From: Acidobacteriota bacterium
GTDB lineage: Bacteria > Acidobacteriota > UBA6911
Direction: 5' to 3'
Length of the DNA stretch: 64,000 nt
Assembly (NCBI GenBank): GCA_963664705.1
Contig: OY761556.1
Coordinates: forward strand, 1,056,001 to 1,120,000
Position 1 is the stretch's first letter; the number at the start of each line of letters is the position of its first letter. Of this stretch, positions 21,598 to 61,197 are shown piece by piece. The notes beneath the pieces are model-generated. The model was not told where the DNA came from and did no database searches. It saw only the letters and a program-made list of their open reading frames with translations. A program made the position numbers and the translations under genes.

Positions 21598-21654
21598 ACA
21601 ATTAGTGTCTACCATTAATTAATGCCGCAGAAGCGGCACCCGTTTGGAGAGCGT

Positions 21655-24600: not shown

Positions 24601-26304
24601 GCCATGCAGGGTCATACCGCTACGATGCTCCGCAACGACAAGGTCCTCGTTGCCGGTGGTCGGAACGGCTCCATCACTCTGAGCAGTGCAGCGTTGTATG
24701 ACGCCGTGGCTACAAGCTTCAGCGTTACCCAGGGCGGCATGAATGCGGAACGTTACCGGCATACCGCAACGCTGCTGGCGAACGGCAAGGTGCTGATTGC
24801 CGGCGGACAAAATAGCGCCTCGATCAACAAGACCGCGGAATTGTACGATCCGAGCGAAAATTCTTTCGTCCTCACCGGCGCCATGACATCTCCAAGGGAT
24901 GCGCATACCGCCACGCTGCTGCAGGACGGAAGAGTCTTCATCGCCGGAGGTCTTGACGGCAACGGTACTTCCATAACTTCGGAAATTTATAATCCCGCAA
25001 CCGGCACTTTCAGCGCTGCGGCAAACATGAATGCGCGCCGCGCTTTCCATACAGCGGTACTGCTGGCAAATGGAAAGGTTCTGATTGTGGGAGGCTATAA
25101 CGGTACCTACCTCAATTCGGCGGAATTGTACGATCCCGCCTCAGGCGTGTTCACGCCGACCGGCAGTATGGCCATGGGCAGAGGCTGGCACACGGCAACT
25201 CTGCTGGCCGACGGTACAGTGCTGATCGCCGGTGGTTTGAATTCGACCGGATCGCTGGCCAGCGCAGAGATCTATTATCCGGACACGGGATTATTCCTCC
25301 CCACTTCATCGGATATGTCTTCGCCCAGAGCCTTCCATTCAGCGGCCCTGTATCTGACATTGAATGCAGTCGCCGATAACACGAATACAAAGGTGTTGAT
25401 CGCGGGTGGAGCCAACGGCAGCACAACATTGAGCAGTGCTGACATTTACGATCCGCTCAAGAGAACCTTTGTGCCGGCGAGTGACATGTCCACGACGCGC
25501 CAGGGGCATACCGCCACGATGCTGGTTGGAGGGGCCGAGGGTTATCTCCGGGTCACATCCAATTATGGGATGCTCTTTACCGAGATCTACAACAATGGCG
25601 GTGCGGATACGGGCATTAATGGGATTAACGTGGATCGCTATGAGGGGGTGAAGTCGATCTATTCTCCTCAGTTTGCAATCCTTCCGGATTACCAGACGCA
25701 TATTAATGTCATTAATGCCAATGAGGATGACGCGACGGTCAGTATCATTTTGCACGGGCCGGATGGTACTGTCCTGGGCAGCCCGCTGACCCGCGTGCTT
25801 GCCGCCAATGCGCAGATCAAAGGGAACCTCCTGGATCTCTTCAATAGCAATGCCCAGTTGGCAGGTAAAACCGGTTGGATCGAAGTGACAAGCAGCCTGG
25901 ATAAGATCGTCGGCATCGTTTCCTATACGAATCCCGGCAACAATTTCCTGACGGCTTATGAGCTATCCCGGGCGCCTTTGAAGAATTTCGTGCTTCCGCT
26001 GGTTTCGGAGGATTATCAGTACGCCACGGGAGTTGCCCTGCTCAACAGCGGCAGTGTGGCTGCCAACGTTCAGGTCGAGCTGTGGGGTCCCTCCGGCACA
26101 CTGGATTCCGTGCGCTCGATTACCCTGGCGCCGCATGCGCAAACGGCTCAGACCTTGAGCACTCTGTTTCCCGGCATGCATGATCACCGATCCGGCAACG
26201 TTCGGATCCATTCTGACCAGCCGCTGCATAGCTTCGCAGCTTTGTACAGTCAGGATCTTCGTTTCATAACGACCATTACTGCAGTTCCTTATCCGGGACA
26301 GTAG
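21655..26304 (+). CDS. Large secreted protein: Kelch propeller, YncE/YVTN-like propeller, second Kelch propeller, repeated beta-sandwich modules
   Basis: Many R..HTATLL.NGKVLIAGG repeats; signal peptide MRFRS...ASA; ATG 21655 after GGAGAG. Confidence 0.85.
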   Translation: MRFRSVIIYLLPLLLLPIQTASAQKRVYTSVNPNSTALNGTADMYDPLTGKMTAVSGQMNYPRERHIAARLTNGKVLIAGGYNNRYLNLAELFDPSTGTFASTKTSSKDTSHNLITARADAASVVLTGGTVLILGGYNATDTFLQSAEIFDSGTNKFSATATNMSAARTRPVATLLSDGNVLVTGGYNGSFLSSADFYFAKNRSFLNSSSTMSDSRQDHTGTLLTSGKVLIAGGCTAAETGQVYCTKYLSSADIYDPEKDTFTATNAMNTARANHTATLLLNGKVLIVGGLAADGSFVKTAEIYDPVTGKFAATGDLNTPRFRHTATLLQNGKVLIAGGYAGQALAGSEIYDPQSGTFTVVSSPMTSARSQHSATLLGDGRVMLAGGENSDLMMFDVNLTSTDNVAPNILFSADSKTGFVSYTGSGTVVSFSTATGTVLRRLKTGGRPVWMSLLPDKSTLLVVSALDNKIFVIDAASLTLTKTYSFTGTFGYGSQLTFSPDSATGYISSTDTGEVIKFEIATGKELGRLSGMGAPGQVTITKDGKTLIVVDVSLNELVFADASTMKAKFKTQPIDNKDDASASFSVFNKAVLSADEEHGVIASQDSVLLVFNVSTGEITNLIAVGASPGYTTLTASGLFWLVLCDGTFSVVPTWSHDSAFNYSVQAGALRSGNIVISPDVRYAYWASGSADRVYQQDFGLGPAVGAFKVGDEDLGVDQPSSLAFTPDYSKLAVVNFESNELDLLSDVTVMRNTKYVSEAEKFTGLSVVNLSNTPANVTFTAMTDAGAEYQTDDGDSDLTDEVQNPVTLQIPANSQKSVDVAQLFNINTNTTNSGYLSLISDQPSIAAFSEVGQIHSDFLDAYLSNVQGIPLNANYRDTMSDWIIPELPQATGTSAEYNFLNPNYNAASFDVTHYASDGTLLQKKASNAISSSTRQAKAVSDLISTIGVGQILIVGGYDSTSTKTSAELFNSSNFASTGNPPTAMQGHTATMLRNDKVLVAGGRNGSITLSSAALYDAVATSFSVTQGGMNAERYRHTATLLANGKVLIAGGQNSASINKTAELYDPSENSFVLTGAMTSPRDAHTATLLQDGRVFIAGGLDGNGTSITSEIYNPATGTFSAAANMNARRAFHTAVLLANGKVLIVGGYNGTYLNSAELYDPASGVFTPTGSMAMGRGWHTATLLADGTVLIAGGLNSTGSLASAEIYYPDTGLFLPTSSDMSSPRAFHSAALYLTLNAVADNTNTKVLIAGGANGSTTLSSADIYDPLKRTFVPASDMSTTRQGHTATMLVGGAEGYLRVTSNYGMLFTEIYNNGGADTGINGINVDRYEGVKSIYSPQFAILPDYQTHINVINANEDDATVSIILHGPDGTVLGSPLTRVLAANAQIKGNLLDLFNSNAQLAGKTGWIEVTSSLDKIVGIVSYTNPGNNFLTAYELSRAPLKNFVLPLVSEDYQYATGVALLNSGSVAANVQVELWGPSGTLDSVRSITLAPHAQTAQTLSTLFPGMHDHRSGNVRIHSDQPLHSFAALYSQDLRFITTITAVPYPGQ

Positions 26305-38935: not shown

Positions 38936-39691
38936 TTACTGAGAGGCAGAACCCGGGACAACCGGCATCACCGTATATAAGCCTTGGTTTTGAGCCAATG
39001 TCGTCAGGATGAAACTGGCGCCGGAGTTCGAGGAAAAGACGATCGTTCCCCGGAAACTATCGAGCGACGGGAAATCCTGGTATACATACCGGGATATTTT
39101 GTTTTTCGGTAGCAGCGGAACAAGCTTGGGCGTGTCGAGGGGGATTCCATCTTCGGAAAAGGCTTCCATCGTCACGATCATGGCTTCGGTCCCAGGGTTT
39201 GCGATCGCGTATGCCGTGTCGAGTTCCAGGTCCGGCTCATAGTCTACCGCTATCGTCGCTGATGTTGTGGGAGGATAGGCCAACACACCAGCGATACTTT
39301 TTATGATTACCCCCGATTCGGCATATTCAAAAGTGGCGATGCCTGTGATCGTGCCGCCCTCCCCCTCATATTTTGCCCATCCAGTTCGGAGGGCAGATCC
39401 CTGCATCCGGTACGAGCTCACGCCTTTCGAGCTGACCTCAATTTCGATCGGAGTTCTTGGATTCCCGGCGGGATCCCAGAACCAAAGCGCCCCAATGGCT
39501 GGAGTACTTCCGGTGTTGATAAAGGTGAAGGTAGTGGCGAATCCTCCTCCGGCGGCATAGTGGGGAAAGTAGATATTGAAAGGTACGCTCTGATCGGTTT
39601 GTCCGCTGGAAGCGGCGGGCCAGATCATCATTGCTAGAATAGCCAGACAGAACAGCCGATTCCAAAGACAAATCCCTCGGTGCAATTTCAT
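38936..39691 (-). CDS. Secreted protein made of two 'YFPH/Q' beta-sandwich modules
   Basis: Signal peptide, then IYFPHYAAGGGFATTF...DTAYAIANP...FRGTI; start estimated at MKLH. Confidence 0.7.
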   Translation of the reverse strand: MKLHRGICLWNRLFCLAILAMMIWPAASSGQTDQSVPFNIYFPHYAAGGGFATTFTFINTGSTPAIGALWFWDPAGNPRTPIEIEVSSKGVSSYRMQGSALRTGWAKYEGEGGTITGIATFEYAESGVIIKSIAGVLAYPPTTSATIAVDYEPDLELDTAYAIANPGTEAMIVTMEAFSEDGIPLDTPKLVPLLPKNKISRYVYQDFPSLDSFRGTIVFSSNSGASFILTTLAQNQGLYTVMPVVPGSASQ

Positions 39692-39800
39692 AGCTCGTTT
39701 CTCCGGTTTCTGTTTCCAGCCGAGGGGGGAAGGTGGCAAACCAAGCCAGCTGAAATTATGGTAGCACAGGAGGGATAATGCGGAAGAGGCGGGTTTTTCC

Positions 39801-39834
39801 CAAGAAGGCTCAAAGCCATCTTTGAGCCTTCTTG
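39801..39834 (-). terminator. Perfect 15-bp hairpin downstream of the 231-aa gene
   Basis: caagaaggctcaaag-ccat-ctttgagccttcttg. Confidence 0.7.
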
Positions 39835-39843
39835 ACTTTCTGG

Positions 39844-40539
39844 CTATGCGGGACGCTTCTTGCCTATTCGCGTGTAGAACTCTTCCGGGATGTCCGCTGG
39901 ATTCTTGTAGAACGTGAATTTGCAGGATCCGTTATTGATCGGTTCCTTTACGATATGAGTCGCGCCGAAATCACCGGCGTTTTCGATCTGAAGCATTTCC
40001 ATAACAGGGCAGTGCACGCAGTAAATTGGAAAATCCTTCATGCCCCAAGTAATCCGATGCGGCTCAGTAATGGTAGCCAACCCGACTTCCGGCGTGTATC
40101 CGCCTTTCTGTATAATCCGTTCGCCTGATCCGCATGGCTGCATTGTCAGACAAATTTTTGCATCATCTTCCTCGATTGTTATTGGCTGAAAATGCCCGCG
40201 CAACCCCGCGGCCAAACCCTGGACGAGTGAGCGGATGTCCGTTCTTTTCGGTGGTTTGAATACCGCTCTCGCTTCAACCGTGTGGGCAAATCTTTCCGCT
40301 TCCTCCACGGCGTCGACGCCGTGTTTCTCGTAAATGTATGTCAGCAGCCCGGAAACCCAGAACATGTATCCATCGTGAAGATAGTTGAATTCTTTTTGCA
40401 TCCGCTGTGCCAGCGTTTTGGCTTTGTCCTTGTCTCCGGCTTCGATGGCCTCGAGAACGAGATCCATCGTCCGTGTACCCATTTGCTTGAGTTCTTCATC
40501 TGTGAATAATCTGCTGCCGCTCATGTAGATAGTCTCCAT
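39844..40539 (-). CDS. Conserved hypothetical protein with Cys/His metal-binding motifs
   Basis: LHD, LRGH, PCGSG, YCVHC and a terminal C; normal globular composition. Confidence 0.75.
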   Translation of the reverse strand: METIYMSGSRLFTDEELKQMGTRTMDLVLEAIEAGDKDKAKTLAQRMQKEFNYLHDGYMFWVSGLLTYIYEKHGVDAVEEAERFAHTVEARAVFKPPKRTDIRSLVQGLAAGLRGHFQPITIEEDDAKICLTMQPCGSGERIIQKGGYTPEVGLATITEPHRITWGMKDFPIYCVHCPVMEMLQIENAGDFGATHIVKEPINNGSCKFTFYKNPADIPEEFYTRIGKKRPA

Positions 40540-40675: not shown

Positions 40676-41152
40676 GTGCCGAGATGCACACAACAAATAA
40701 GTATCAAAAAGTGGGCCAATATCGACCTGCGCCGGATCGACACACTGCCAATCAACCGCAGGCTGGTGGAAGTTCTAGCCCAGATTGAGAATTCGGCCAG
40801 GAGTGAGTGGGTTTTTGCAAATCGTGACTGGAAACCGCCCAAATCGATTAGAACTGCCTTTGAAACTGCCTGCCGAAATGCTAAATTATCCGACGTCACT
40901 CCGCATACTCCGCGGCAAACGTTTGCGAGCCGGTTGGGAATGCAGGGGGCAGGGGATCGAACCCTCCCGGTACTAGGACGCTGGAAGGAACCGAAGATGA
41001 TCCGCCGTTATGTCCAGCTCAGTGAACAGCATCTGAGGGAAACGGTGGAACGGCTCGTGGAAAACTCCCCAACAAATTTTACTACACTTGCCAATGAAGC
41101 CCCGGTTGGTGTAGCCTCTAAAATCAGTCCTATCAGTTATATGGGCCCATAG
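40676..41152 (+). pseudogene. Tyrosine recombinase/integrase C-terminal remnant
   Basis: WANIDL, FETAC..A.L.DVTPHTPRQTFASRL (degenerate HxLRH), LGRW...MIRRY; N-terminus absent. Confidence 0.8.
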
Positions 41153-41216
41153 CTCAGTTGGTTAGAGCAGCTGACTCATAATCAGCGGGTCGGGGGTTCA
41201 AGTCCCTCTGGGCCCA
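41143..41216 (+). tRNA. tRNA with CAT anticodon, probably tRNA-Ile2 (lysidine)
   Basis: Cloverleaf GGGCCCA/TGGGCCC, GCTC/GAGC, GCTGA-CTCATAA-TCAGC, GGGGG-TTCAAGT-CCCTC; paired 1-72 and no GGG/CCC anticodon stem, so not fMet; CCA not encoded. Confidence 0.93.
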
Positions 41217-41445
41217 CTCAAAATCCTCAGGACCTTACAGCTTTTCCTCAAGTTCCAAAAGCCTCCGGGGCAGCGCCTGAGTAGCAAAGCCTTGTGCTGG
41301 CGTCGCCATCAAAAATCTCGAGGTGTTGGTTATGCTAAAGCCTCTACATACATCGGTTAACTGAACTATGGAGAGGCCAGCCAGCAATGAGCATCCAGGT
41401 TTTCAGGCGCTCTGATGCCACGAAGACTCCATTTTTATTTTCGGG

Positions 41446-44189: not shown

Positions 44190-45422
44190 ATGTTGGAAGG
44201 CAAAAACCAGGGCATGATCCGCAAATACCTCCGAGTGCTTTTCCCGATTTTGTTTTCCGTGATCGTCTCCTCCATGGGCGCTGCCTTGACATACATCTTT
44301 CTATCCCTGATCCTCCCATCGCCAGTGATCGACTACACGGTGCCCGTACTGGTCTTTGTGGCCCTCTGCAATGCCTGTTTGCGGCTCTTGCTGAGGATCC
44401 GCCCGGCAAATGATTTCGCCCACTTGGCCTTGCCGCTTAGCCTTGCAGCCACGCTGCTGGCATTTGGCATTGTGGCTTTCCCAACGGTTCAGGAAGCCGT
44501 TCGGTTTCACCCTGCCCACGGCAGCGCCGAGGTTCTTCAAGCATTGCGACGGAATGCCTTCCCGCTGAAATCCGTGAGTGCGGGCCAAGGTTTCGATGAT
44601 CTGCGGCCCCTAAAAAGCATACTGGCAGGAAAGCGTATTGTGGCTCTGGGCGAGGCCACGCATGGGACCAGTCAGTTTTTCCGCATGAAACACCGCCTGG
44701 CGGAATTTCTGGTGGCAGAGATGGGCTTCCGGCATTTCGGGATGGAACTCAGCACCAGGGATGGCCACCTGCTGAACAACTACATCCAAGGAGAACCGGC
44801 AGATCCTCTCCAAGTGCTCTATTGGCCCTGGAGAACTCGAGAGGTGCTGGATATGCTTGCCTGGATGCGTGCCTACAATGCCAGCGCCAGTCCGCAAGAA
44901 CGTCTCACTTTTCATGGGATTGATCCCATTTACGGTAAGCGCGATCCCGTAATGGCGCAGAACGTGGCTCTCCTGCTGGAGGAAGCAGGTCCGGAAAGCA
45001 AGATGGTTCTGTGGGCACACAACGCTCATATCTCGAACAGAAACGGGTGGATGGGCCGTTACCTGAAAGCGAAGTGGGGCGATATGGCCTACTTGCTGGG
45101 TTTTGAGTTTGATCGCGGCGTGTTTACATCACGCATGGCGACTATCCATTCCTATGCGATCGGCGCAGCCTCTCCCGAATATTATGCGCATGCCCTGGCG
45201 CGGCTGGGCATTCCGGTGTTATACCTTGATTTCCAGGTTCTGTCCCGGTCGCCAGTTCTGCGCACCTGGCTTGAAACGCCTCAAAGCTCGCACGAGTTTC
45301 AGGAGCTGCATGCCATCTATCGGCTAAACCCGGAGTGGCACACTCTACATGACAGTTGGGCACAGCTTTATGATGGGATGATCTTCATTGAAGAAAGCAC
45401 GCCAGCCATATCTGTGCCGTAA
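44190..45422 (+). CDS. Erythromycin esterase (Ere/TIKI-fold) family protein with N-terminal TM segments
   Basis: IVALGEATHGT..FF, FGME, F.GID, RD..MAQN, VLWAHNAHI, YDGMIFI. Confidence 0.85.
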   Translation: MLEGKNQGMIRKYLRVLFPILFSVIVSSMGAALTYIFLSLILPSPVIDYTVPVLVFVALCNACLRLLLRIRPANDFAHLALPLSLAATLLAFGIVAFPTVQEAVRFHPAHGSAEVLQALRRNAFPLKSVSAGQGFDDLRPLKSILAGKRIVALGEATHGTSQFFRMKHRLAEFLVAEMGFRHFGMELSTRDGHLLNNYIQGEPADPLQVLYWPWRTREVLDMLAWMRAYNASASPQERLTFHGIDPIYGKRDPVMAQNVALLLEEAGPESKMVLWAHNAHISNRNGWMGRYLKAKWGDMAYLLGFEFDRGVFTSRMATIHSYAIGAASPEYYAHALARLGIPVLYLDFQVLSRSPVLRTWLETPQSSHEFQELHAIYRLNPEWHTLHDSWAQLYDGMIFIEESTPAISVP

Positions 45423-45433
45423 GGGAACATTGT

Positions 45434-48400
45434 TTATGGGATTGTATAGCTGAACGCAACCGCGCCGTTTTCCCTGCCGGGCGCCTCGTCCTTAGCCGGG
45501 TATGTCCTTACATAATCTACTTTCACGCCGATCGTTGAAACGGTCACTCGGGTATACCCGCTATTGGGGAACTTATCTCCGCTCAGGTAGGCATCTGCGT
45601 TGAACCAGGAATAGTTCGGGTCTGCCGGCTCTGAGAGTGTCTGGTAGGTAACCCCATCCAGCTGCTGCCGTACCCAGATGTGATCGTGTCCCTGAAAGAA
45701 GATTGTGACGTGATTGGCCACCATCAACTGATGAAGCGGAAGGCTCCATGTCGGACGGTTCTTTGAGAACCCCCACGTCCCGTTGGCATTCCCTCCGCCC
45801 CACTCATACAACCCCGCTATCTCCACTCCGCCCCTCTGGGTGCCCATCACGTGATGGGCGAAGACGAATTTGTATTTGGCCGTACTCTGCTCAAGAGTAG
45901 TTTTTAACCACTGGTATTCAGCGTCTCCATGGGTGATGTCCCACATGTTGGATCGTTTCGATCCGCCGCCAAACGGTGCATCCACGCACACTGGGGAAGA
46001 CCAGTAAGGATCAAGGACCACGAAAAGTGCATCGCCCCATTGCCAGGCGTAGTAGTTCCTCAGAAGCCCGATATACGGCACAACCTCCGCATTCCCGCTG
46101 TAAAACGAATCCGGTGCAGGTTGGGAATAGAGCGAATTTCGGGCATTCTGGGCCCAGACCGCCACATTATCAGGCGTTCCATCCAGCAGATACCTTGCCG
46201 CCTGCTCGTGATTTCCGTTTACAAGAAACAGTGGCGCTGTATTGCCGATCAGCCCGAGATAGGGTCGCTGCAGAGTATATCGTTCGTTCACCAATGACGG
46301 GTTGACGGTTGTGGGATCCAGATTGTCCACGCTGAAATCATCCCCCATCAGGATGTAAAAATCGGGATGATCTGCTGCCGCCGTTGCTAGGGTTCTTCTG
46401 TATAATTCCGCATCAAACTGCGATTTCTCACGCTCCGGGTGAGAATCGCCCTGAATCGCGAAGGTGAATGTCTCTCCGGCACTGCGTGCCGTATGAAAGC
46501 TCATCTCCGTACTGTTGCCGAAATTGCCTGTCCCTGCGGGTTTGAAGTATAGCCGGTAATAGTATCGCGTATTCTCCAGAAGCCCGGTCAGAGTGAATTC
46601 AACCGGGATGGACGGCTGAATGTTTGCGATAGAAGTCGTTTGTTCGTAGGTGCCGCTTGATTTTCCATAGGCGATAAATGCGGTCCCGCTCTGATCGGAA
46701 GTGAGCACATTCGCTTTGACAGAGTTTGCCGCTGGCGAACCAAGAACGATGCTGCCATCGAAAAGGCTCGTGCGGTCGGCTGCTCCGACGGCAATCAGCC
46801 GAGATGTAGAATTCGAACCCGCTGAATTCGTTACCGAAAGAGTAACGGAATATGAGCCGGCGCTCGCATATGTGTGCACTGGATTCCGGGTGGAACTTGA
46901 AACACCATCGCCGAAATTCCATGCCCAGGAAACGGGGCCTCCTGAACTTGAATCCGTGAACTGTATGCTCTGACCTGCAAGCGCCGCCGCCGGGCTCAAT
47001 GAAAATGATGCAACTGGCACTGTCGATTGCAGGGTCACCGACCAGGAATCATCGATTTCCCCATTCTTTTGCGTGGCCGTTTCGCTTGCCGGCAACCATG
47101 CCCGCACGTATTGGGCTTGAGCGCTGTTTGGCGAGACCGTAACTCGCAGATGACCGCTGCTGCTCAATATTGTTCCGGAAGAATAGTGATACTGCGTTGC
47201 AAGCGCCGCGCCGCTGGAGGTGTTTTTGGCGCTGGGCTGGGGAACCTCCAGGTAAACGATTCCATCGAGAGTTTGTCTTGCGTACAAATGATCATGGCCG
47301 TGAAACACTGCCGTGACGCCATACTGCTTGAGCATCTGATGGATAGGAACGCCCCAGCCCGGACGGTTTTTGCTGAACCCATCCGTGCCGTCCGGATTTT
47401 TCCCGCCCCATTCAAAATAGGGCGCAGCTTCAATGCCTCCTCGGTATTGCCCGTCAAGTCCGCCCACCAGGCTGTGAATGAAAATGAACTTGTAGGTTGC
47501 GGAACTTGCTGCAAGTGTATCTCGCAGCCATTGGTACTGCTTCGGCCCAAGAGTCAGATTCCAGCCGTCCGTACCACCTTTTGCTCTTGTATTCCAATAA
47601 GGGTCCAGAACGACAAACAGGGCATCGCCCCACTGCCACGAATACCATGACGCACGCTCTCCGACAAATGCCTCTGACGTTGTATCCCCTCCGTAAAAGG
47701 GATCGGGTGTTGGATTCAAATAGAATTGCTGACGTGCTTCCGTCGTCCACACTGCAAGGTTATTTGCAGTGCCATCAACGAACCAGCCGGTCTCGCCTTC
47801 GTGGTTTCCGTTGACGAGGAACAATGGCACCGACGGACTGATGATTCCGAAATTGCCCCGTTCATATTCGTAACGGGCATTAACCGTTGCCGGATCCCGG
47901 GCCGTTTGTACTGTTGATGTCAAGGGAGCGGAATACTTCTCGCACATGAACGTATCACCCAAGTCGATGTGGAAATCGGGCGCATCCGCTTGAACATTGC
48001 TTAGGGTTTTGCGATAGAGATTCAGATCCGAGTTCTCATCGAGGTGGGAGTCGGCTTGGATCGTAAATGTAAACGAGGTGCCGGCCGGCCGGGCGGTTCG
48101 AAAGGTATACCAATCTGTTGGCCCGCTGCTGCTACCGGCTGAAGCCTCATAAAAAAGGCGATAGTAGTACACTGTGTTTTCATACAATCCAGTAAGCGCA
48201 ATCTGCATCGGAATACCGGCAGAGAGGGTGGCCGAGGATGTCTGATTATCGAGCTTTCCGGGACTCGTTCCATACTGAACCGAGATCTTTCCGCTCTGAC
48301 CGGCAGAATATATATTCAGCTTTATGGAATTCGAAGTTGGTGCTCCAAGAAGGATGCTGCCCGAAAAACTCCCCTTCCCATAGGTAACGACTGGCAACGT

Positions 48401-49828
48401 TGTCAGCGCGAGAGGAGAACCGCTAATGCGCAACGCTAGAGCCGCTACTTCCGTACTTGAACTTACCCAAAGGGATCCTTTGAAATCATGGATTCCAGGG
48501 AATAGTTCTGAAACCATTTTTGCCATGTGACCGCCGGCGGAAAGGCTCATCGTGAAACCCATGCCGACTGCGTTCCCTTCAGTATCCAGCAACTGGATTT
48601 TCAGAGAATCATCTGAGCTGGTGGTTCCGGTGAGGGCTATTCCAGTGTCGTAATCTCCGGTCACCACCACCGGCACTGCAAATGAATTCAGCGCAGTTGA
48701 GCCGTTTACGGCCGCCTCAGTCTGAAAAGCTCCGGTTGAGTTCAAAACGGTGAAGATGCCGGACACGCTAACTGGAATATCAGAGGTAATCATCGCTGCG
48801 GCAGTATTCAGGCCGCCGACTCCATCGGTCTGCAGGAACAACGATGCCCCCGAGGCAAGATTCGAAAAAGTGAAAATATTCCGCCTTCCTTGCCCAATGA
48901 TGGTCATGCTGACTGGTTTTCCATCATCGCCGGTCAAGCTTAAAGTCACATTGGCCGGTGCTGCAGAAATGTTGGTAATTAGAAAGGACGTTTTATAGAT
49001 GCCGCTGCCAAACGATCCGTTCGCAATTTGTGGGAGGTACAGTTTCTGTTCCGTCGAGCTTGTCGAAACGCTGGATACCGAGGTATAGGACAGCGGGGAA
49101 GCATTCTCCCTCAGTGCAATTGACGCCAAGGGTTCTGAAGACTGGACCAGTATGGATCCCTGGAAATTAGCCACTGTCGGAAAGAGCTGTCCAGGCCCGT
49201 ATACATAATGGGCAATGTGCTTGTTTGCCCCTAAAGTGAAAATTACCGGTATCCCGGATTGTTGGCCACTGCTATCCCGCAACGTGAGGGTCACCGTCGC
49301 ATCTCTGCCTGTGGTATTGAGAACCGCAAGAGCTGTATTGAAGGAGGCTGTAGTATCGACGGGAAGCACAAAACTGGATAGTGGTTTCGCGTCACTGATG
49401 CCGGTTTCGGTATAGTGAGTTCCATCCATGTCATAAACTCTGAAGATTTCCGATACTCCAATCTCTGCGGGGGAGGAGATCTTCGCGACACCGGCAACCA
49501 GGCTTCCTTGTCCATCCGTTTCAAGCAGTTGCGTGCCTCCGGCTGGCAGGTGAATGGTAAATCTGCTGCCTGAATTCCCATCCACCGCCATTATCAGAGG
49601 GTTTCCCTCGTCATCGAATAATTCCAAAGTGGCAGCAAAAGCGGAACCGCTGTTGTTGCAAAGCACAAAGGTAGTTGTGAATCTCCCTCCATTGCCTCCG
49701 TTGGCAATCTGCGGCAAATAATAAACGCTCTGCGCATATAGGCTGTTTGCGAAAAAGCATGCTGTGCAGAGAACAATAAGCAGATATTTGCAAATTGAAA
49801 TTGTTTTCCTCGTCATCAGGACTCGCAT
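45434..49828 (-). CDS. Secreted protein: 449-aa repeat module, two FN3-metallophosphoesterase domains and a PKD domain
   Basis: Two full sets of DSH / GD / GNHE / H / GHDH; PKD SWAWNFGDG between them. Confidence 0.88.
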   Translation of the reverse strand: MRVLMTRKTISICKYLLIVLCTACFFANSLYAQSVYYLPQIANGGNGGRFTTTFVLCNNSGSAFAATLELFDDEGNPLIMAVDGNSGSRFTIHLPAGGTQLLETDGQGSLVAGVAKISSPAEIGVSEIFRVYDMDGTHYTETGISDAKPLSSFVLPVDTTASFNTALAVLNTTGRDATVTLTLRDSSGQQSGIPVIFTLGANKHIAHYVYGPGQLFPTVANFQGSILVQSSEPLASIALRENASPLSYTSVSSVSTSSTEQKLYLPQIANGSFGSGIYKTSFLITNISAAPANVTLSLTGDDGKPVSMTIIGQGRRNIFTFSNLASGASLFLQTDGVGGLNTAAAMITSDIPVSVSGIFTVLNSTGAFQTEAAVNGSTALNSFAVPVVVTGDYDTGIALTGTTSSDDSLKIQLLDTEGNAVGMGFTMSLSAGGHMAKMVSELFPGIHDFKGSLWVSSSTEVAALALRISGSPLALTTLPVVTYGKGSFSGSILLGAPTSNSIKLNIYSAGQSGKISVQYGTSPGKLDNQTSSATLSAGIPMQIALTGLYENTVYYYRLFYEASAGSSSGPTDWYTFRTARPAGTSFTFTIQADSHLDENSDLNLYRKTLSNVQADAPDFHIDLGDTFMCEKYSAPLTSTVQTARDPATVNARYEYERGNFGIISPSVPLFLVNGNHEGETGWFVDGTANNLAVWTTEARQQFYLNPTPDPFYGGDTTSEAFVGERASWYSWQWGDALFVVLDPYWNTRAKGGTDGWNLTLGPKQYQWLRDTLAASSATYKFIFIHSLVGGLDGQYRGGIEAAPYFEWGGKNPDGTDGFSKNRPGWGVPIHQMLKQYGVTAVFHGHDHLYARQTLDGIVYLEVPQPSAKNTSSGAALATQYHYSSGTILSSSGHLRVTVSPNSAQAQYVRAWLPASETATQKNGEIDDSWSVTLQSTVPVASFSLSPAAALAGQSIQFTDSSSGGPVSWAWNFGDGVSSSTRNPVHTYASAGSYSVTLSVTNSAGSNSTSRLIAVGAADRTSLFDGSIVLGSPAANSVKANVLTSDQSGTAFIAYGKSSGTYEQTTSIANIQPSIPVEFTLTGLLENTRYYYRLYFKPAGTGNFGNSTEMSFHTARSAGETFTFAIQGDSHPEREKSQFDAELYRRTLATAAADHPDFYILMGDDFSVDNLDPTTVNPSLVNERYTLQRPYLGLIGNTAPLFLVNGNHEQAARYLLDGTPDNVAVWAQNARNSLYSQPAPDSFYSGNAEVVPYIGLLRNYYAWQWGDALFVVLDPYWSSPVCVDAPFGGGSKRSNMWDITHGDAEYQWLKTTLEQSTAKYKFVFAHHVMGTQRGGVEIAGLYEWGGGNANGTWGFSKNRPTWSLPLHQLMVANHVTIFFQGHDHIWVRQQLDGVTYQTLSEPADPNYSWFNADAYLSGDKFPNSGYTRVTVSTIGVKVDYVRTYPAKDEAPGRENGAVAFSYTIP
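48386..49732 (-). repeat. Copy 2 of the duplicated 1347-bp N-terminal module
   Basis: QSVYYLPQIANG ... LALTTLPVV, colinear with 51108-52454. Confidence 0.9.
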
Positions 49829-49853
49829 CAGGTCTCTCTGGAGTTCTTGCCTT

Positions 49854-52550
49854 TTAGGGCTCGAAGAACAGGTAATCCGTATTGCTGATATAGGGCGCTA
49901 GCAGGCCTGCATCATTGATGACGCTCGAATAGAGAAAGGGCGTTGTGCAAATCGAGAAATCAAAGGCCGTTCCGTCTGAATAGGTGCCCGACATTATGGA
50001 TTTGCGTAGTGCCGCAAACTTGGTTTTCTGTTCGGCACTAAGAGTATTGAACACTTGGGATATCACTGTTGCATAGTGATAGTTATTCTCGCCATCCAGA
50101 TCCCCATAGGTTTCAGACAATGCGAGCACTTGATTTTTGATCTCATCCGTTGCAACCGTGGTTGTCATCAGACTTCGCAGCAGTGTAGAGATCTGAGTCC
50201 GAAGGTTTACGATGTTGGAAATGGGGGATGAGTACAGGTTATTCCTCTGGATGTCCACCAGGTTATTGAAAGCTGCAGCCTGGTTTGCTGTGACATAGCC
50301 TCTGGAGCTGTCACTGAGCGCCGACCCAGCGGTAGCCGTCAGCTGTTCATTGATGCTGTAGCCTTCATGCCCTACGGCCGGAGCATCCTTGATATAGAAT
50401 CCTCCATAGTAAGTCCCATGACGCTCGGGACAGAAGTAGACATCGGCCGTCACTGATCCGGCATACCAGCTGAAGATGTCGCTTGCATAGGTCATCACTG
50501 CCACCGAGGTGTCTCGTGGAAGTTTTTGCATCTTGGCTTTAATTAGATCGTTGCTGATGTCCGGCCAGGAAGCCCATCCCTTGCCTTTCATGGCATTCAG
50601 GTAGGTCTTCTGCGTTGAGTCCATGGAGTTGAGGATATTGGCATAGAGGAGAGCGCGATCGAAGCTCATCTGGCCGTCGATGAGGTAGAGTGCCCGTGAA
50701 GCCTGCCTTACCGCATTGAGGTTCAGCCCATTGGAGCCGGCGGGAGTGCTGCCATCGAGTTGGCGGCGAAATGCCTGCATCAAAGGAAATCGTTTGTAGC
50801 CGTATAGATCAATCCGGCTTTGCTCGGTTGTAGCAAGGGAACCCAATTGGGCTAACTGTGCATCAGTTAGGATGTAGATGATATTGTTTGCAATTCGGGT
50901 CAGAAAACTGGTGTTGTGCCCCATGTCGTCCGGATCATTGTCTCGCAGGTACTGAAACCCAAAATAATCCGAAACCTTTCCCGGAGGGAAGAAGGACTGT
51001 GCGTCCAGATTCCCCGTCATCATAGCAAGTCCAGAGAAAGCTATGGTTGTGCTCTGGGCCTGATCGGAAATCGTGTCGGACATGCTGAATCTTGCATTAA
51101 AGTTTGAAATGACAGGCAATGTTGTCAACGAAAGGGGTGAATTATTAATGCGCAGGATCAAAGCCGCCAAATCCGCTGTTGAACTGACTAAAAGCGATCC
51201 TTGAAAATTACTGATTTGTGGAAAGAGTTCTGAAACCATCTTGGCCATATGGCCCTTTGCCGGCAGGTCAAGCTTCAGACTGGTTCCGACCGCTGTCCCG
51301 CTTTCATCCATCAGTTGAAGATTCAAAGAAGCAGCAGAACTGGTGATTCCCTGGAAAGCGATCCCGGTATCAAATGCCCCGGTGACCGCCACCGGTATTG
51401 TGATGGATGATAGCCCCGCAGATCCGCTTACCGCAGCCTCGGTTTGAAAGGCTCCTGCCGAATCAAAAATCGTGAATATGCCGGATACACCGATTGGAAC
51501 ATCCGATGCTATCGTTGCCGCACCAGTAGTCAGGCTGCCAGTTCCATCGGTCTGAAGAGATAATGAAGCTCCCGAAGCAAGGGGCGAAAAGGCGAAATTG
51601 CTATGCTTCCCCTGTCCGATTATGGTCATGTTCACGGGGTTCCCATTATCGTCAGTCAAACTCAAAGTCACATTGGCCGGTTTTGCAGAGATATTTGTAA
51701 TCAGAAAGGACGTTTTATATGCGCCATTGCCAAACGATCCGTTAGCAACCTGAGGGAAATACTGCGTTTGATCGAGCGAATTCGTCGGTATGCTGGACAA
51801 CGCGGTATAGGACAGCGGGTATGAGTTTTCTCTCAAGGCTACCGAGGCCAATGGTTGCGAAGACTGAACCAATAGAGATCCCTGGAAATTGGACGCCGAT
51901 GGAAAGAGCTGTCCTGAACCGGAAATATATCGGGCAATGTGCTTGTTTGCCCCAATTGTCAAGGTAACCGGGGCCCAGGACTGTTTGCCGCTATTGTCAC
52001 GTAATGTGAGCGTGGCGGTGGCATTCGAATTTGCTGTGTTGAGGAATGCCAGCGCTGTATTGAAGTTCCCTGTTGTATCCACGGGAAGCACAAAGCTGGA
52101 CAGAGGTGTCGCACTGTTGATGCCGGTCTCAGTAAAGTGAATCCCATCAACTTCGTAAACCCTGAATATTTCCGATACTCCTATCTTTGCCGAAGAGGAG
52201 AGCCTTGCTACTCCGCTCACCAGACTTCCTTGGCTGTTGGTCTCCAGCAGGCGGGAACTTCCAGCGGGCAACTGAATGACAAAATGGCTGTTGGAACTTC
52301 CACCTACATTCATTATCAGTGGATTTCCATTGTTATCGAATAGGTCCAGGTTGGCGGTAACAGCGGCACTGCTGTTGTTGCAGAGCACGAAGGTTGTTTT
52401 GAACCTGCCCTCATCCCCACCGTTGGCAATTTGGGGTAAATAATAGATATTTTGGGCAAAAGCATTGCCGGCCCAAAAACATGCCAGCCAAAACAGACCC
52501 CATCCGATGACTGTCTTTCTTGATTTGTTGATTTGAATTGCCCGCCGCAT
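49854..52550 (-). CDS. Secreted protein: 449-aa repeat module plus uncharacterised C-terminal domain
   Basis: Signal peptide ending AFA; strong SD GAGGAGG; C-domain FFPPGKVSDYFGFQYLRDND...YFCPERHGTYYGGFY. Confidence 0.85.
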   Translation of the reverse strand: MRRAIQINKSRKTVIGWGLFWLACFWAGNAFAQNIYYLPQIANGGDEGRFKTTFVLCNNSSAAVTANLDLFDNNGNPLIMNVGGSSNSHFVIQLPAGSSRLLETNSQGSLVSGVARLSSSAKIGVSEIFRVYEVDGIHFTETGINSATPLSSFVLPVDTTGNFNTALAFLNTANSNATATLTLRDNSGKQSWAPVTLTIGANKHIARYISGSGQLFPSASNFQGSLLVQSSQPLASVALRENSYPLSYTALSSIPTNSLDQTQYFPQVANGSFGNGAYKTSFLITNISAKPANVTLSLTDDNGNPVNMTIIGQGKHSNFAFSPLASGASLSLQTDGTGSLTTGAATIASDVPIGVSGIFTIFDSAGAFQTEAAVSGSAGLSSITIPVAVTGAFDTGIAFQGITSSAASLNLQLMDESGTAVGTSLKLDLPAKGHMAKMVSELFPQISNFQGSLLVSSTADLAALILRINNSPLSLTTLPVISNFNARFSMSDTISDQAQSTTIAFSGLAMMTGNLDAQSFFPPGKVSDYFGFQYLRDNDPDDMGHNTSFLTRIANNIIYILTDAQLAQLGSLATTEQSRIDLYGYKRFPLMQAFRRQLDGSTPAGSNGLNLNAVRQASRALYLIDGQMSFDRALLYANILNSMDSTQKTYLNAMKGKGWASWPDISNDLIKAKMQKLPRDTSVAVMTYASDIFSWYAGSVTADVYFCPERHGTYYGGFYIKDAPAVGHEGYSINEQLTATAGSALSDSSRGYVTANQAAAFNNLVDIQRNNLYSSPISNIVNLRTQISTLLRSLMTTTVATDEIKNQVLALSETYGDLDGENNYHYATVISQVFNTLSAEQKTKFAALRKSIMSGTYSDGTAFDFSICTTPFLYSSVINDAGLLAPYISNTDYLFFEP
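51108..52454 (-). repeat. Copy 1 of the duplicated 1347-bp N-terminal module
   Basis: QNIYYLPQIANG ... LSLTTLPVI. Confidence 0.9.
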
Positions 52551-52718
52551 ACTTGTCCCTCCTCTTATTCACTGAACGAACAATAAACGCATCTTAGGCT
52601 ATTCGAGCGACACTGGCGGTTATGCCAAAGAGTGGGGAATCGAAGCCTGACACCGGGCGCTCACGCAAGAAGCAAATCCCCAATTATCGGATCAGCCTGT
52701 TTCCCTTCTCAAACGATA

Positions 52719-52747
52719 TGTCGTGGGTTTGGCGGCAATGGTTTACG
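52719..52747 (-). promoter_or_regulatory. ECF-type promoter, copy 2 (cGTAA-N16-CCACGACA)
   Basis: Minus strand cgtaa accattgccgccaaac ccacgaca; same boxes and spacing as 54304-54332. Confidence 0.7.
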
Positions 52748-52765
52748 CGGATGCTGAATAATTAT

Positions 52766-52806
52766 AAAAAAAACGCCATGGAAGTCGCTGTCGAATCCAT
52801 GGCGTT
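52766..52806 (-). terminator. Intrinsic terminator ending the sigma / anti-sigma / Spy operon
   Basis: aacgccatgga / tccatggcgtt stem running into T8 on the minus strand. Confidence 0.85.
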
Positions 52807-52834
52807 GCCAAATCTTATCTGCTGGGAATGCTTG

Positions 52835-53305
52835 CTATCGCCTTCTTTGCGGTTCTCCTGGCAGCGGTGGCGGCGGCTGTGATTCCTTTTTCTGTAGAAT
52901 CTGCCATTGAGCCGACGTCAAAACCATTCGTAGCTTTAAACTCATCTGGGCAACCGCACGCATCATATCTGCGCGGGTGGTCACGACCTGATCAATCGCT
53001 TCCTGCCCGCGCCTGGGATCCACTTTTTCATCATTCATAATTTGCTGCAAAACCGCCTCGGCTTTGTCGGCGGCACCACGCAGTTGGATCAACTGGTCGC
53101 GGGATTCGGCTACAGTTGCACGGATTTTCTTGTTTTGTTCTTCGCTTAGTCCCAGATCCCTGACAATAGGTTGATCCCACCAAGCTGTGGTTTCGGGTTT
53201 CGGGCGCGGTCCCCGGCCGCCCTGCGGGTTCCGGTCTTGGGCGGATCCGATATTTGTGAACGCCGCAATGATGCACATTAACACGCTGATTCTCAGAGTA
53301 TTCAT
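52835..53305 (-). CDS. Spy/CpxP/ZraP-like periplasmic protein
   Basis: Signal peptide, LGLSEEQ and VLTSAQW (LTxxQ) motifs, helical composition. Confidence 0.82.
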   Translation of the reverse strand: MNTLRISVLMCIIAAFTNIGSAQDRNPQGGRGPRPKPETTAWWDQPIVRDLGLSEEQNKKIRATVAESRDQLIQLRGAADKAEAVLQQIMNDEKVDPRRGQEAIDQVVTTRADMMRAVAQMSLKLRMVLTSAQWQILQKKESQPPPPLPGEPQRRR

Positions 53306-53724
53306 TTTCCTACCTCGAATAGAGACCGGATCGGTTCCGCTGAACTCGGGAGAGGATCCGAGATTCTGGAAAAGATATCATCGAAAAGCTCAGAGTCCGA
53401 AATATGCTGCTTGGGTGGAGGCTGTATTGAAGAGGGTCTTCGAACCATCACAACGGCAAAAATCATAAGTGTAACGAGTACCGGAACCAGAATTATGGGA
53501 AAGGGTCGGCGTTTTGCATGGATCCGGGCATGAATGGCTCGCCTCTGTCCGGCAAGAAAGTCTGGGGATACTTCAATCCCAACAGGCTGAAAGTTTTCAA
53601 GTCCACTGCGAATCGCTTTAAGCCTCTTGGCGCATGAGACACATTTGGCAAGGTGATCATCCCCGGGACGCACATCATAGACCAGGGCAAAAAGCTCCTC
53701 ATCCGTCCAATGTTTATCGTACAT
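53302..53724 (-). CDS. Zinc-binding transmembrane anti-sigma factor
   Basis: H...HLAKCVSC (HxxxCxxC), one TM helix; overlaps both neighbours. Confidence 0.85.
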   Translation of the reverse strand: MYDKHWTDEELFALVYDVRPGDDHLAKCVSCAKRLKAIRSGLENFQPVGIEVSPDFLAGQRRAIHARIHAKRRPFPIILVPVLVTLMIFAVVMVRRPSSIQPPPKQHISDSELFDDIFSRISDPLPSSAEPIRSLFEVGK

Positions 53725-54295
53725 ACAAGTCTCTCAATTCTGCGCGCAGTTTCTTTATTGCGCGAGCCATGTGGGCTTTTACCGTACCGGTGTTCAGGTT
53801 CATTATTCCGGCAATCTCTTCGAAGCTCAGCTGTTCTTCGTGACGAAAAATGAAAATCGCCTTCTGGCGGGCGGATAATCGCTCAAGGGACCTTTCCAAA
53901 CGATGTCGAATTTCCTGACCCTTGGCTTCGTCTTCTTGTGTCGGGCCGGATGCAGGTGTCGCCCGGAGCATGTCATCGCTGAAGGCATCCCTTGAGTGTT
54001 TCTGCCAGAAACGCCATCTTTTCGACCGGATGCGATTGTAGCAAGTGTTGAAGGCAACGCGGGTGAGCCACTTTGGCGGTTCCTGAATACTGCTCCGGCC
54101 ATTTTTCTCAAGGGTCTTATAGGCCTCAACGAAGACATCCTGTGTGGCAGAATCAGCCTCATCGCGGTTTCGGAGCAGGCGCATGCATAGCACAAAAATT
54201 CTTTCCTGCTCCTCGGCCATCCATGCCTCGAAGTCGATCTCATGCATGACTAATTCCACGTCTCCCACCGTCAGAACACTCTCCTGAGCTTCCAT
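53714..54295 (-). CDS. ECF RNA polymerase sigma factor
   Basis: EADSATQDVF, WLTRVAFNTC, LS.RQK.IF, EEIA..M....GTVKAH..RA; start at ATG 54295. Confidence 0.93.
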   Translation of the reverse strand: MEAQESVLTVGDVELVMHEIDFEAWMAEEQERIFVLCMRLLRNRDEADSATQDVFVEAYKTLEKNGRSSIQEPPKWLTRVAFNTCYNRIRSKRWRFWQKHSRDAFSDDMLRATPASGPTQEDEAKGQEIRHRLERSLERLSARQKAIFIFRHEEQLSFEEIAGIMNLNTGTVKAHMARAIKKLRAELRDLYVR

Positions 54296-54303
54296 ATTCT
54301 TAT

Positions 54304-54332
54304 TGTCGTGGATGTTTTGCAAATCGATTACA
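54304..54332 (-). promoter_or_regulatory. ECF-type autoregulatory promoter, copy 1 (tGTAA-N16-CCACGACA)
   Basis: Minus strand tgtaa tcgatttgcaaaacat ccacgaca, 8 nt before the sigma ATG. Confidence 0.7.
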
Positions 54333-60060: not shown

Positions 60061-61197
60061 ATGGCTTCTTTTCGTATTTTGCTTATTTCGATCGTCATGG
60101 TTGCGGGTTGGCAGAGCACATTAGTGGCTGCGGCCGGAACTGTCCCTCAGGATTTTACTGTTTGGAGTGTGGGAGGATCCTGGACGTGTGGTGGAAGACC
60201 GACCTCCATTACTCAGGATGGCCACAATCACCTGCTTTTCACTAACGAAAATGGACTGCGCTCAAAGGGCAGTTTCCTGAATACGGACACAGTGGTTGCA
60301 ACCGAATGGGAAAATGGGTTGCGTGGATCGGTTCAGGATGGGGGCAACACAATCCAATGGGCCAACGGGACCGTCTGGTATCGAAATCAAACAGGCTATG
60401 GACAGAGTGGTTCCCTGCCATCCCTATCGGACGCCTGGATCTGTGACGGCAAACCAACATCCATCACGCAGGACGCGGGCGGAAACCTCGTCTTTACAAA
60501 CCAGATGGGATGGAAATCCAAAGGTAGATTTGCCGATGCGGCAACGGTAATTGCGACGGAATGGGAGAACGGCCTGCGCGGCTCTCTGCAAGACGGAGGC
60601 AACACCATTCGATGGGCCAACGGAACCGCATGGTTCCGGAGCGGACCCACGGGCGTTCGGCTTAACCCGACAGAATCCTTGCTGGGAGGAGTGCCTTCGC
60701 AGGGCCGATTGCCTTCGCTGGGAGGTGCCTGGATCTGCGACGGTAAGCCGACCTCCATTACGCAGGATGGGAGCGGAAATCTAGTTTTTACAAACCAAAT
60801 GGGTATGAAATCCAAAGGCAGGTTTGCAGACGCGGGAGCGGTAATTGCGACGGAATGGGAGAACGGCCTGCGCGGATCCCTGCAAGACGGAGGCAATACC
60901 ATCCGATGGGCCAATGGAACGGCATGGTTCCGCAGTTCACCGGCAGCGGGAGCGGCTGTCACGCCCTCCTTGGCCGGTGTCTGGACGTGCGATGGACGTC
61001 CAACCTCCATTACGCAGGATGGGAGCGGAAATCTAGTTTTTACAAACCAAATGGGTATGAAATCCAAAGGCAGGTTTGCGGACGCGTCTACCGTCATCGC
61101 CACCGAATGGGAAAACGGACTCCGGGGTTCCTTGCAGGATAACGGGAATACCATTCGCTGGGCCAATGGCACGGCGTGGTACCGCGGCAATCGCTAA
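60061..61197 (+). CDS. Secreted protein with four ~72-aa Trp-rich beta repeats
   Basis: SD GGAGG; signal peptide; W.CDG.PTSITQDG.GNLVFTN..G.KSKG.F...V.ATEWENGLRGSLQD.GNTI.WANGT.W.R x4. Confidence 0.88.
   Translation: MASFRILLISIVMVAGWQSTLVAAAGTVPQDFTVWSVGGSWTCGGRPTSITQDGHNHLLFTNENGLRSKGSFLNTDTVVATEWENGLRGSVQDGGNTIQWANGTVWYRNQTGYGQSGSLPSLSDAWICDGKPTSITQDAGGNLVFTNQMGWKSKGRFADAATVIATEWENGLRGSLQDGGNTIRWANGTAWFRSGPTGVRLNPTESLLGGVPSQGRLPSLGGAWICDGKPTSITQDGSGNLVFTNQMGMKSKGRFADAGAVIATEWENGLRGSLQDGGNTIRWANGTAWFRSSPAAGAAVTPSLAGVWTCDGRPTSITQDGSGNLVFTNQMGMKSKGRFADASTVIATEWENGLRGSLQDNGNTIRWANGTAWYRGNR
60169..61185 (+). repeat. Four intragenic repeats; copies 2-4 nearly identical at DNA level
   Basis: e.g. 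acgcaggatgggagcggaaatctagtttttacaaaccaaatgggtatgaaatccaaaggcaggtttgc occurs twice. Confidence 0.9.

Follow-up and report, generated by a model that had tools for sequence, protein, structure and literature searches.

Extracytoplasmic function (ECF) sigma factor genes followed by an anti-sigma factor gene at position +1 and a gene for a heavy-metal-resistance/LTXXQ protein at +2 are a described arrangement, found in groups ECF281, ECF290 and ECF111 according to the parts of the ECF classification at hand (Casas-Pastor et al. 2021, PMC7826278). The CnrYXH system of Cupriavidus metallidurans (ECF291) is built similarly from an ECF sigma factor, a single-pass anti-sigma factor with a periplasmic tail and an accessory protein of the Metal_resist family, in which regulators and cargo have separate promoters (PMC6851896, in extracts). 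Precedent for metal-induced exported proteins is provided by UzcRS and UrpRS of Caulobacter, which respond to U/Zn/Cu by switching on exported proteins and a phytase, again as given in extracts of the source (PMC8963506). Here, we analyzed a locus of five genes (positions 45,434 to 54,332, minus strand) in a 64,000-nucleotide stretch of contig OY761556.1 from an Acidobacteriota bacterium (assembly GCA_963664705.1), in the following called the window. It unites an ECF sigma/anti-sigma/Spy cassette with two exported cargo or "kit" proteins, an 898-aa protein with an unnamed C-terminal domain of ~410 aa (the B domain, or B) and a 1464-aa protein with two phosphoesterase units (M1 and M2). We put the probability at roughly one half that this locus is induced upon toxic envelope insult, most likely by a Cu/Zn-type metal or by the damage such a metal causes. 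The sigma/anti-sigma/Spy switch is a known kind of layout, and what is new is the cargo, i.e. the B domain and its regulon, for which no description was found in the open full-text literature. An initial claim that no characterised system has this layout therefore stands for the cargo but not for the cassette. The features of the locus are these:

54304..54331, minus strand: P1, ECF-type promoter TGTAATC-N17-CGACA, 8 nt before the sigma ATG
53714..54295, minus strand: ECF sigma factor, 193 aa from the ATG at 54295 (Pfam Sigma70_r2/r4_2, TIGR02937)
53302..53724, minus strand: anti-sigma factor of the zinc-binding type with one predicted membrane helix and a short conserved periplasmic tail (alignment)
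52835..53305, minus strand: exported Spy/CpxP/CnrX-family (Metal_resist) protein (PF13801, alignment)
52766..52806, minus strand: intrinsic-terminator-like hairpin with T-run (fold -20.8 kcal/mol)
52719..52746, minus strand: P2, second copy of the ECF promoter, ~170 nt before the gene for the 898-aa protein
49854..52550, minus strand: gene for the 898-aa secreted protein (open reading frame, ORF)
51108..52454, minus strand: two ~220-aa units of an Acidobacteria-type DUF5719-related module in the 898-aa protein
49857..51092, minus strand: B domain, unnamed, ~410 aa, all-helical, with internal duplication, in the 898-aa protein
45434..49828, minus strand: gene for the 1464-aa secreted protein (ORF)
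48386..49732, minus strand: duplicate two-unit module in the 1464-aa protein
47024..48367, minus strand: M1, Fn3 plus calcineurin-like domain with motifs D-S-H, GDTF, GNHE and HGHDH
46799..47017, minus strand: PKD domain between M1 and M2 of the 1464-aa protein (Pfam PKD_4)
45437..46768, minus strand: M2, Fn3 plus calcineurin-like domain with motifs D-S-H, GDDF, GNHE and QGHDH

The gene content proposed in a first-pass annotation of the DNA was recovered in full. All five co-oriented ORFs are present, those for the sigma factor, the anti-sigma factor and the Spy-like protein overlapping each other at their junctions. The sigma factor is short, comprises regions 2 and 4 only and reached 81 bits with TIGR02937 (cut-off 42.9) in the NCBIfam/Pfam scan. 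A longer version starting at GTG 54403 was rejected because P1 would then lie inside the ORF. Although a Pfam scan, zf-HC2 included, gave no match for the anti-sigma factor, the orthologue alignment revealed a four-ligand H..HxxxCxxC pattern (H5, H24, C28 and C31 invariant in 6/6 aligned orthologues), then a hydrophobic stretch and the conserved tail. The product of the third gene scored above the cut-off of Metal_resist (39 versus 29.2 bits), in agreement with its description as Spy/CpxP/ZraP-like; residue count and alignment showed that its mature part contains no His and no Cys. The hairpin with T-run after this gene was omitted by a simple terminator scan. The 898-aa protein begins with a signal-peptide-like N-terminus, as judged by eye, and the 1464-aa protein was resolved by Pfam into two Fn3+Metallophos units and a PKD domain, confirming it as a double metallophosphoesterase.

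Control of the cargo by the sigma factor had been proposed from a bipartite promoter motif shared between the sigma gene and the cargo pair. Both sites exist, and taken alone their similarity is modest, as they match at 19/28 positions, a value that 9 of 300 random pairs (3%) equalled or surpassed. We accept the promoter as real because it is conserved in relatives, not on the strength of the window pair. Within a comparison set of 60 related genomes, the motif precedes the sigma gene and the B gene in the same-genus genome G014, and the B, sigma and phosphoesterase genes separately in G034, where the gene order is module-B, sigma, anti-sigma, Spy, FGE-sulfotransferase and M1-module. All seven sites of the three genomes share the identical spacing TGTAA(A/C/T)C-N17-CGACA, with the first T changed to C at one window site, and in both relatives the spacing of P1 and its position before the sigma gene are the same. 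When both strands of the 6.9-Mb genome were scanned with a matrix derived from only five sites of the two other genomes, the window sites ranked first and third; the second-ranked site aside, no further convincing site was found. P1 is likely autoregulatory, as its conservation in the three genomes indicates, and nearly leaderless. Retention of the motif before the cargo genes in the rearranged loci of G014 and G034 supports the proposed regulation, and the sigma factor likely switches on the two exported cargo proteins. We regard the architecture and regulation of the locus as described here as highly probable.

The cassette resembles known ECF systems to different degrees. A zinc-finger, one-helix anti-sigma factor at +1 and a Metal_resist protein at +2 are common to ECF281 and the window locus, while the predicted ECF281 promoter GGAACTT/GTCTAA is not matched by TGTAA(A/C/T)C/CGACA and the ECF111 prediction, TTGAACCT/GTCTAAA, is likewise unlike the window motif (PMC7826278, parts at hand). 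The same parts of that source do not list Acidobacteria under ECF281 or ECF290 and describe no cargo of the kit type. Compared with CnrYXH, the window has a zinc-binding anti-sigma factor instead of the CnrY type, its cargo consists of exported B and phosphoesterases, and there is no adjacent metal-efflux operon. Close sigma orthologues occur in 7 of the 60 relatives. Six further orthologous cassette loci all contain the anti-sigma and Spy genes and all lack both B and phosphoesterase, so that the link between cargo and ECF cassette is a local one. A CGTC variant of the promoter motif precedes the sigma gene in three of these six loci, and four of them carry a second small exported protein at the place taken by B here, two with Metal_resist hits. 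An Nramp gene adjoins the cassette only in the G014 locus (L001). In G007 (L171:795-10567) the cassette is followed, in the same orientation, by genes for a small exported protein and an unnamed protein of 401 aa as well as by a run of phosphate-binding/transport and regulator genes.

The predicted co-occurrence of the two cargo types across phyla was borne out by a neighbourhood check on 57 foreign genome loci with B. Many of these are short, and kit members were counted by tblastn. Because of kinship and partial redundancy among the loci, we do not treat the counts as independent tests and claim no statistical test. B occurred together with the phosphoesterase family in 25 of the 57 loci and in 14 of the 28 well-flanked ones (at least 5 kb on both sides), the phosphoesterases usually being paired. 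B-M-M and B-M fusions were encountered (P0136, P0186, L021), as were fusions of B to PEBP, Lcl_C or gluconolactonase-type domains. Other recurrent content of the 57 loci comprised PEBP (18), a small exported two-Cys protein (16), FGE (7), aryl-sulfotransferase (7) and sulfatase (3). According to record titles, the loci stem from Acidobacteria, Planctomycetes, several proteobacterial groups, Verrucomicrobia, Actinobacteria, Armatimonadetes and Elusimicrobia, and one B cluster has a member from the Methanomicrobiales. Among the 60 relatives B was present in only four, which suggests patchy, mobile inheritance, and the phosphoesterase family in only three. The ~100-aa two-Cys protein lacks a Pfam match (L019:5775-6077, L003:4228-5946); judged by eye, the L003 kinase has a similar segment inserted into its periplasmic part, and the protein may serve the two-component version of the kit as a module for sensing or tuning.

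The view of the locus as a self-contained ECF unit holds for the window, where the cassette stands beside the cargo, but not for the kit at large: an ECF factor was present in 9 of the 57 loci, a two-component pair in 28. Some regulator lay within 5 kb of B in 21 of the 28 well-flanked loci, compared with ~16% of random windows of this genome as a rough background. The best NCBIfam hit was a heavy-metal regulator model for 14/17 response regulators and 5/7 kinases; the remaining best hits were BaeR (2) and MtrA (1) for response regulators and BaeS (2) for kinases. A motif search on 12 regions adjoining CusR-like regulators yielded the palindrome AT(G/T)ACA-N4-TGT(A/C)AT. Of the B loci, 14/15 with a CusR-like regulator contained it, compared with 6/28 without a regulator and 2/14 with another one. 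In 12 of the 15 loci it lay, frequently in more than one copy, 61-226 nt before ORFs for B, phosphoesterase or FGE, and 7 of these 12 had not been used in its derivation. In the E. coli genome the pattern occurs, with 0 mismatch, as a single site each in the cusR-cusC and hprR-hiuH regions. The kit regulators are 39-46% identical to CusR/HprR and share this intergenic palindrome, whereas the cargo differs from that of CusRS/HprRS and of UzcRS/UrpRS. The window differs in turn, as it uses an ECF factor and has no such palindrome at up to one mismatch. Searches with three regex motif types revealed no common ECF promoter among 15 kit loci of other taxa that contain an ECF factor. The foreign kit genes are thus predicted to be under a copper/oxidant-type two-component regulator and, given the operators there and the ECF promoter here, the kit likely has two independent modes of co-regulation. 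We likely deal with one mobile stress kit with swappable switches. A variant palindrome, CATTAAA...TTTAATG, was seen between divergent regulator and B genes (L014:9817-9990, L021:7093-7260; one Verrucomicrobia record).

The B domain has no Pfam model of its own. Among 7999 candidates scored, 3776 relatives were found at E<=0.001, with 693 representatives when clustered at 50% identity. Identities of 69-81% were seen for the 120 best listed hits. There are two subtypes, often side by side. The predicted model is confident and helical (pLDDT 93), and an internal repeat was detected with an HH probability of 98% (E 1.8e-13). Each half consists of an invariant ~45-aa loop and a Spy/LTXXQ-like unit. 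The loops read PPGKV..D..G.F..RD..GHN in the first half and D.YFCPER...Y.G.F..K..P in the second and contain invariant K, D, R, H, C and E. Of 40 members, 25 matched LTXXQ and 11 Metal_resist at E<=0.05 (best 2.5e-10), the Atlas cluster of B is 54% LTXXQ (score 0.90 at low recognition), and the window copy itself stays below the LTXXQ cut-off (15.5 versus 24.3 bits). B therefore appears to be an internally duplicated relative of the Spy/CpxP/ZraP/CnrX family (PF07813, PF13801), its two units matching weakly to moderately; it differs from that family in having both units in one chain, each after its loop. Foldseek gave no hit to solved structures at E<=0.001 and sequence and profile searches were blank, which shows neither a new fold nor its absence. 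The best whole-domain Z scores with VIA were 4.5 and 5.8 and no solved structure fits the whole domain; one half matched only generic hairpin structures, and matches to CpxP (Z 3.6, rank 39, rmsd 4.9, 100 aligned) and CnrX (E 3.6) were weak. Two B genes (L157:7046-8158, L057:10001-11234) are apparently frameshifted, through assembly error or decay.

In M1 and M2 the five motifs and seven metal ligands of calcineurin-like metallophosphoesterases are intact: D108, H110, D143, N186, H305, H361 and H363, together with the catalytic His H187, are invariant in 37/37 aligned units. The best solved relatives by profile (E 2e-9) are purple acid phosphatases, which have the same layout of Fn3 plus calcineurin-like domain. 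Purple acid phosphatases possess a Tyr ligand in GDxxY and DxG in motif I. The former is seen as GDNFY in the purple acid phosphatase of the profile match, whereas M1 and M2 lack the Tyr (GDTFM and GDDFS) and have D-x-H (D-S-H) in motif I. Pfam PhoD gave 23.4 bits, under its cut-off of 27. The family falls into two paralogous clades, which are nearly always retained together as a pair. In 80 phosphoesterase-anchored metagenome loci (50 of at least 8 kb, 24 of at least 12 kb), at least two copies were present in 66, and in 47 of the 50 of at least 8 kb; at the window locus the two units are fused in one chain. The pair represents an uncharacterised exported phosphatase family, mostly from uncultured microbes.

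For the signalling steps, the stimulus and the substrates we infer a sequence of events whose first part follows the analogy to CnrYXH. A periplasmic dimer of the Spy-like protein would hold the conserved tail of the zinc-binding anti-sigma factor, and stress would shift this contact and free the sigma factor. The freed sigma factor would amplify itself from P1 and transcribe the two-gene cargo operon from P2. Extracytoplasmic hydrolysis of phosphate esters would be the task of the exported, presumably binuclear M1 and M2. B, a single-chain double-Spy protein with invariant Lys/Asp/Arg/His/Cys/Glu loops, would take part in the same process by binding a small anionic ligand or converting it. 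A metal-type stimulus in particular falls just short of even odds.

Several observations weigh against induction by metal or against the coupling of the two cargo types. No regulator scored above the curated cut-offs of TIGR01387/TIGR01386, the periplasmic regions of the kit kinases show no obvious His/Met cluster by eye, and no metal pump recurs among the conserved neighbours in at least three B loci. The operator is shared with HprR, an oxidant-type sensor. Pairing is not obligate, with B in only 9/80 phosphoesterase-anchored loci (7/24 of those of at least 12 kb), and G014 keeps cassette and B, but the phosphoesterase family was not found in it at E<=1e-30. Finally, the metal site of CnrX is formed by His42/His46/Glu63/His119/Met123 (PMC6851896, in extracts), and the lack of His and Cys in the window Spy-like protein makes such a site impossible. 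Metal detoxification, as originally suggested, is indirectly supported by the CusR-like regulators and operators elsewhere and disfavoured by the Spy-like protein of the window.

The same regulon could instead answer to general envelope, oxidant or polyphenol stress, with B acting mainly as an enlarged Spy-type holdase for the co-exported enzymes. The Spy-like protein devoid of metal ligands, the second small exported protein at B's place in other cassettes, the BaeR/BaeS-like regulators at some loci and the fit of the operator to hprR-hiuH are all in line with this explanation, as is a Pseudomonas BaeS gene that is induced with its adjacent LTXXQ gene by tea polyphenol (PMC5435343, in extracts). 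The conservation of B speaks against it: the small Spy orthologues show 54% mean column identity within one class, compared with the 69-81% of the best 120 listed B hits and their invariant loops, and this far tighter conservation is more readily explained by a specific site than by a holdase surface. We consider this explanation as a whole rather unlikely. Improbable to a higher degree is that the kit scavenges P and S from organic esters in nutrient-poor settings. The cargo does include purple-acid-phosphatase-like phosphoesterases and sulfatase, FGE and aryl-sulfotransferase domains, and the G007 cassette lies upstream of a co-oriented phosphate-transport operon; however, that cassette has no B or phosphoesterase nearby, PhoB was the best hit for 0/17 regulators, the operator is of the CusR/HprR type and no transporter was found among the conserved neighbours of B loci.

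The B domain is a large, highly conserved domain that can now be assigned to a regulon with promoters and operators known to the base, so that the stimulus is directly testable with reporters. A bolder proposal, which we put forward tentatively and with the odds against it, is that B is a new enzyme or specific ligand binder derived from a fused Spy-like dimer. Its partners in an exported, so far undescribed pathway of detoxification would be the non-purple phosphoesterase pair, PEBP and FGE/sulfotransferase proteins. Such a pathway would be common to numerous phyla of bacteria and to some methanogenic archaea, and its control would have moved between ECF and CusR-type switches. If B proved catalytic or ligand-specific, a Spy/CpxP-family scaffold would have been turned into an enzyme or receptor.

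The N-terminal module of 449 aa reported to be shared by the two cargo proteins is real (304/449 positions identical without gaps, 71% at the DNA level), and the two copies are each other's closest in the genome (68% versus 44% for the next). Its interpretation as a common scaffold of the system did not hold. In this genome 26 ORFs, varied in size and layout, contain the module, but only 1 of the 57 foreign B loci does; in sequence it resembles DUF5719 and unnamed clusters from Acidobacteriota. Among 54 long relatives scanned, other B proteins carried PKD, cadherin, Fn3, TIG, dockerin or T9SS tails. It is likely a lineage-wide generic stalk that both cargo proteins acquired by duplication and that is interchangeable with PKD, cadherin and T9SS tails. 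Co-assembly of the two proteins via this module into a dedicated metal-phosphate-precipitating display platform, as the mutual closeness of the copies, the related modules on both B and phosphoesterase in G034 and phosphatase-driven uranium precipitation in other bacteria (PMC8963506, in extracts) might suggest, is very improbable in view of the wide use of the module in the genome, its near absence from foreign loci and G014, where only one module unit is present and the partner was not found. Two more module-bearing genes lie in the window at 38939-39931 and 21622-26301, one of them with many Kelch repeats, and the third-closest two-unit copy is G000:C1:1589202-1591808 (44% identity).

Elsewhere in the window, a gene at 60061-61197 encodes a protein that looks exported, carries several near-identical repeats of ~60 aa and gave no significant Pfam match. 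A membrane-anchored protein of the erythromycin esterase family, far under the Ere cut-offs, is encoded at 44190-45422 and converges on the gene for the 1464-aa protein with an 11-nt gap. A tRNA-Met gene (41143-41217) directly follows a 158-aa ORF (40676-41217 together), which we take to resemble a C-terminal fragment of a tyrosine integrase, and may mark the edge of an old island 4 kb from the locus.

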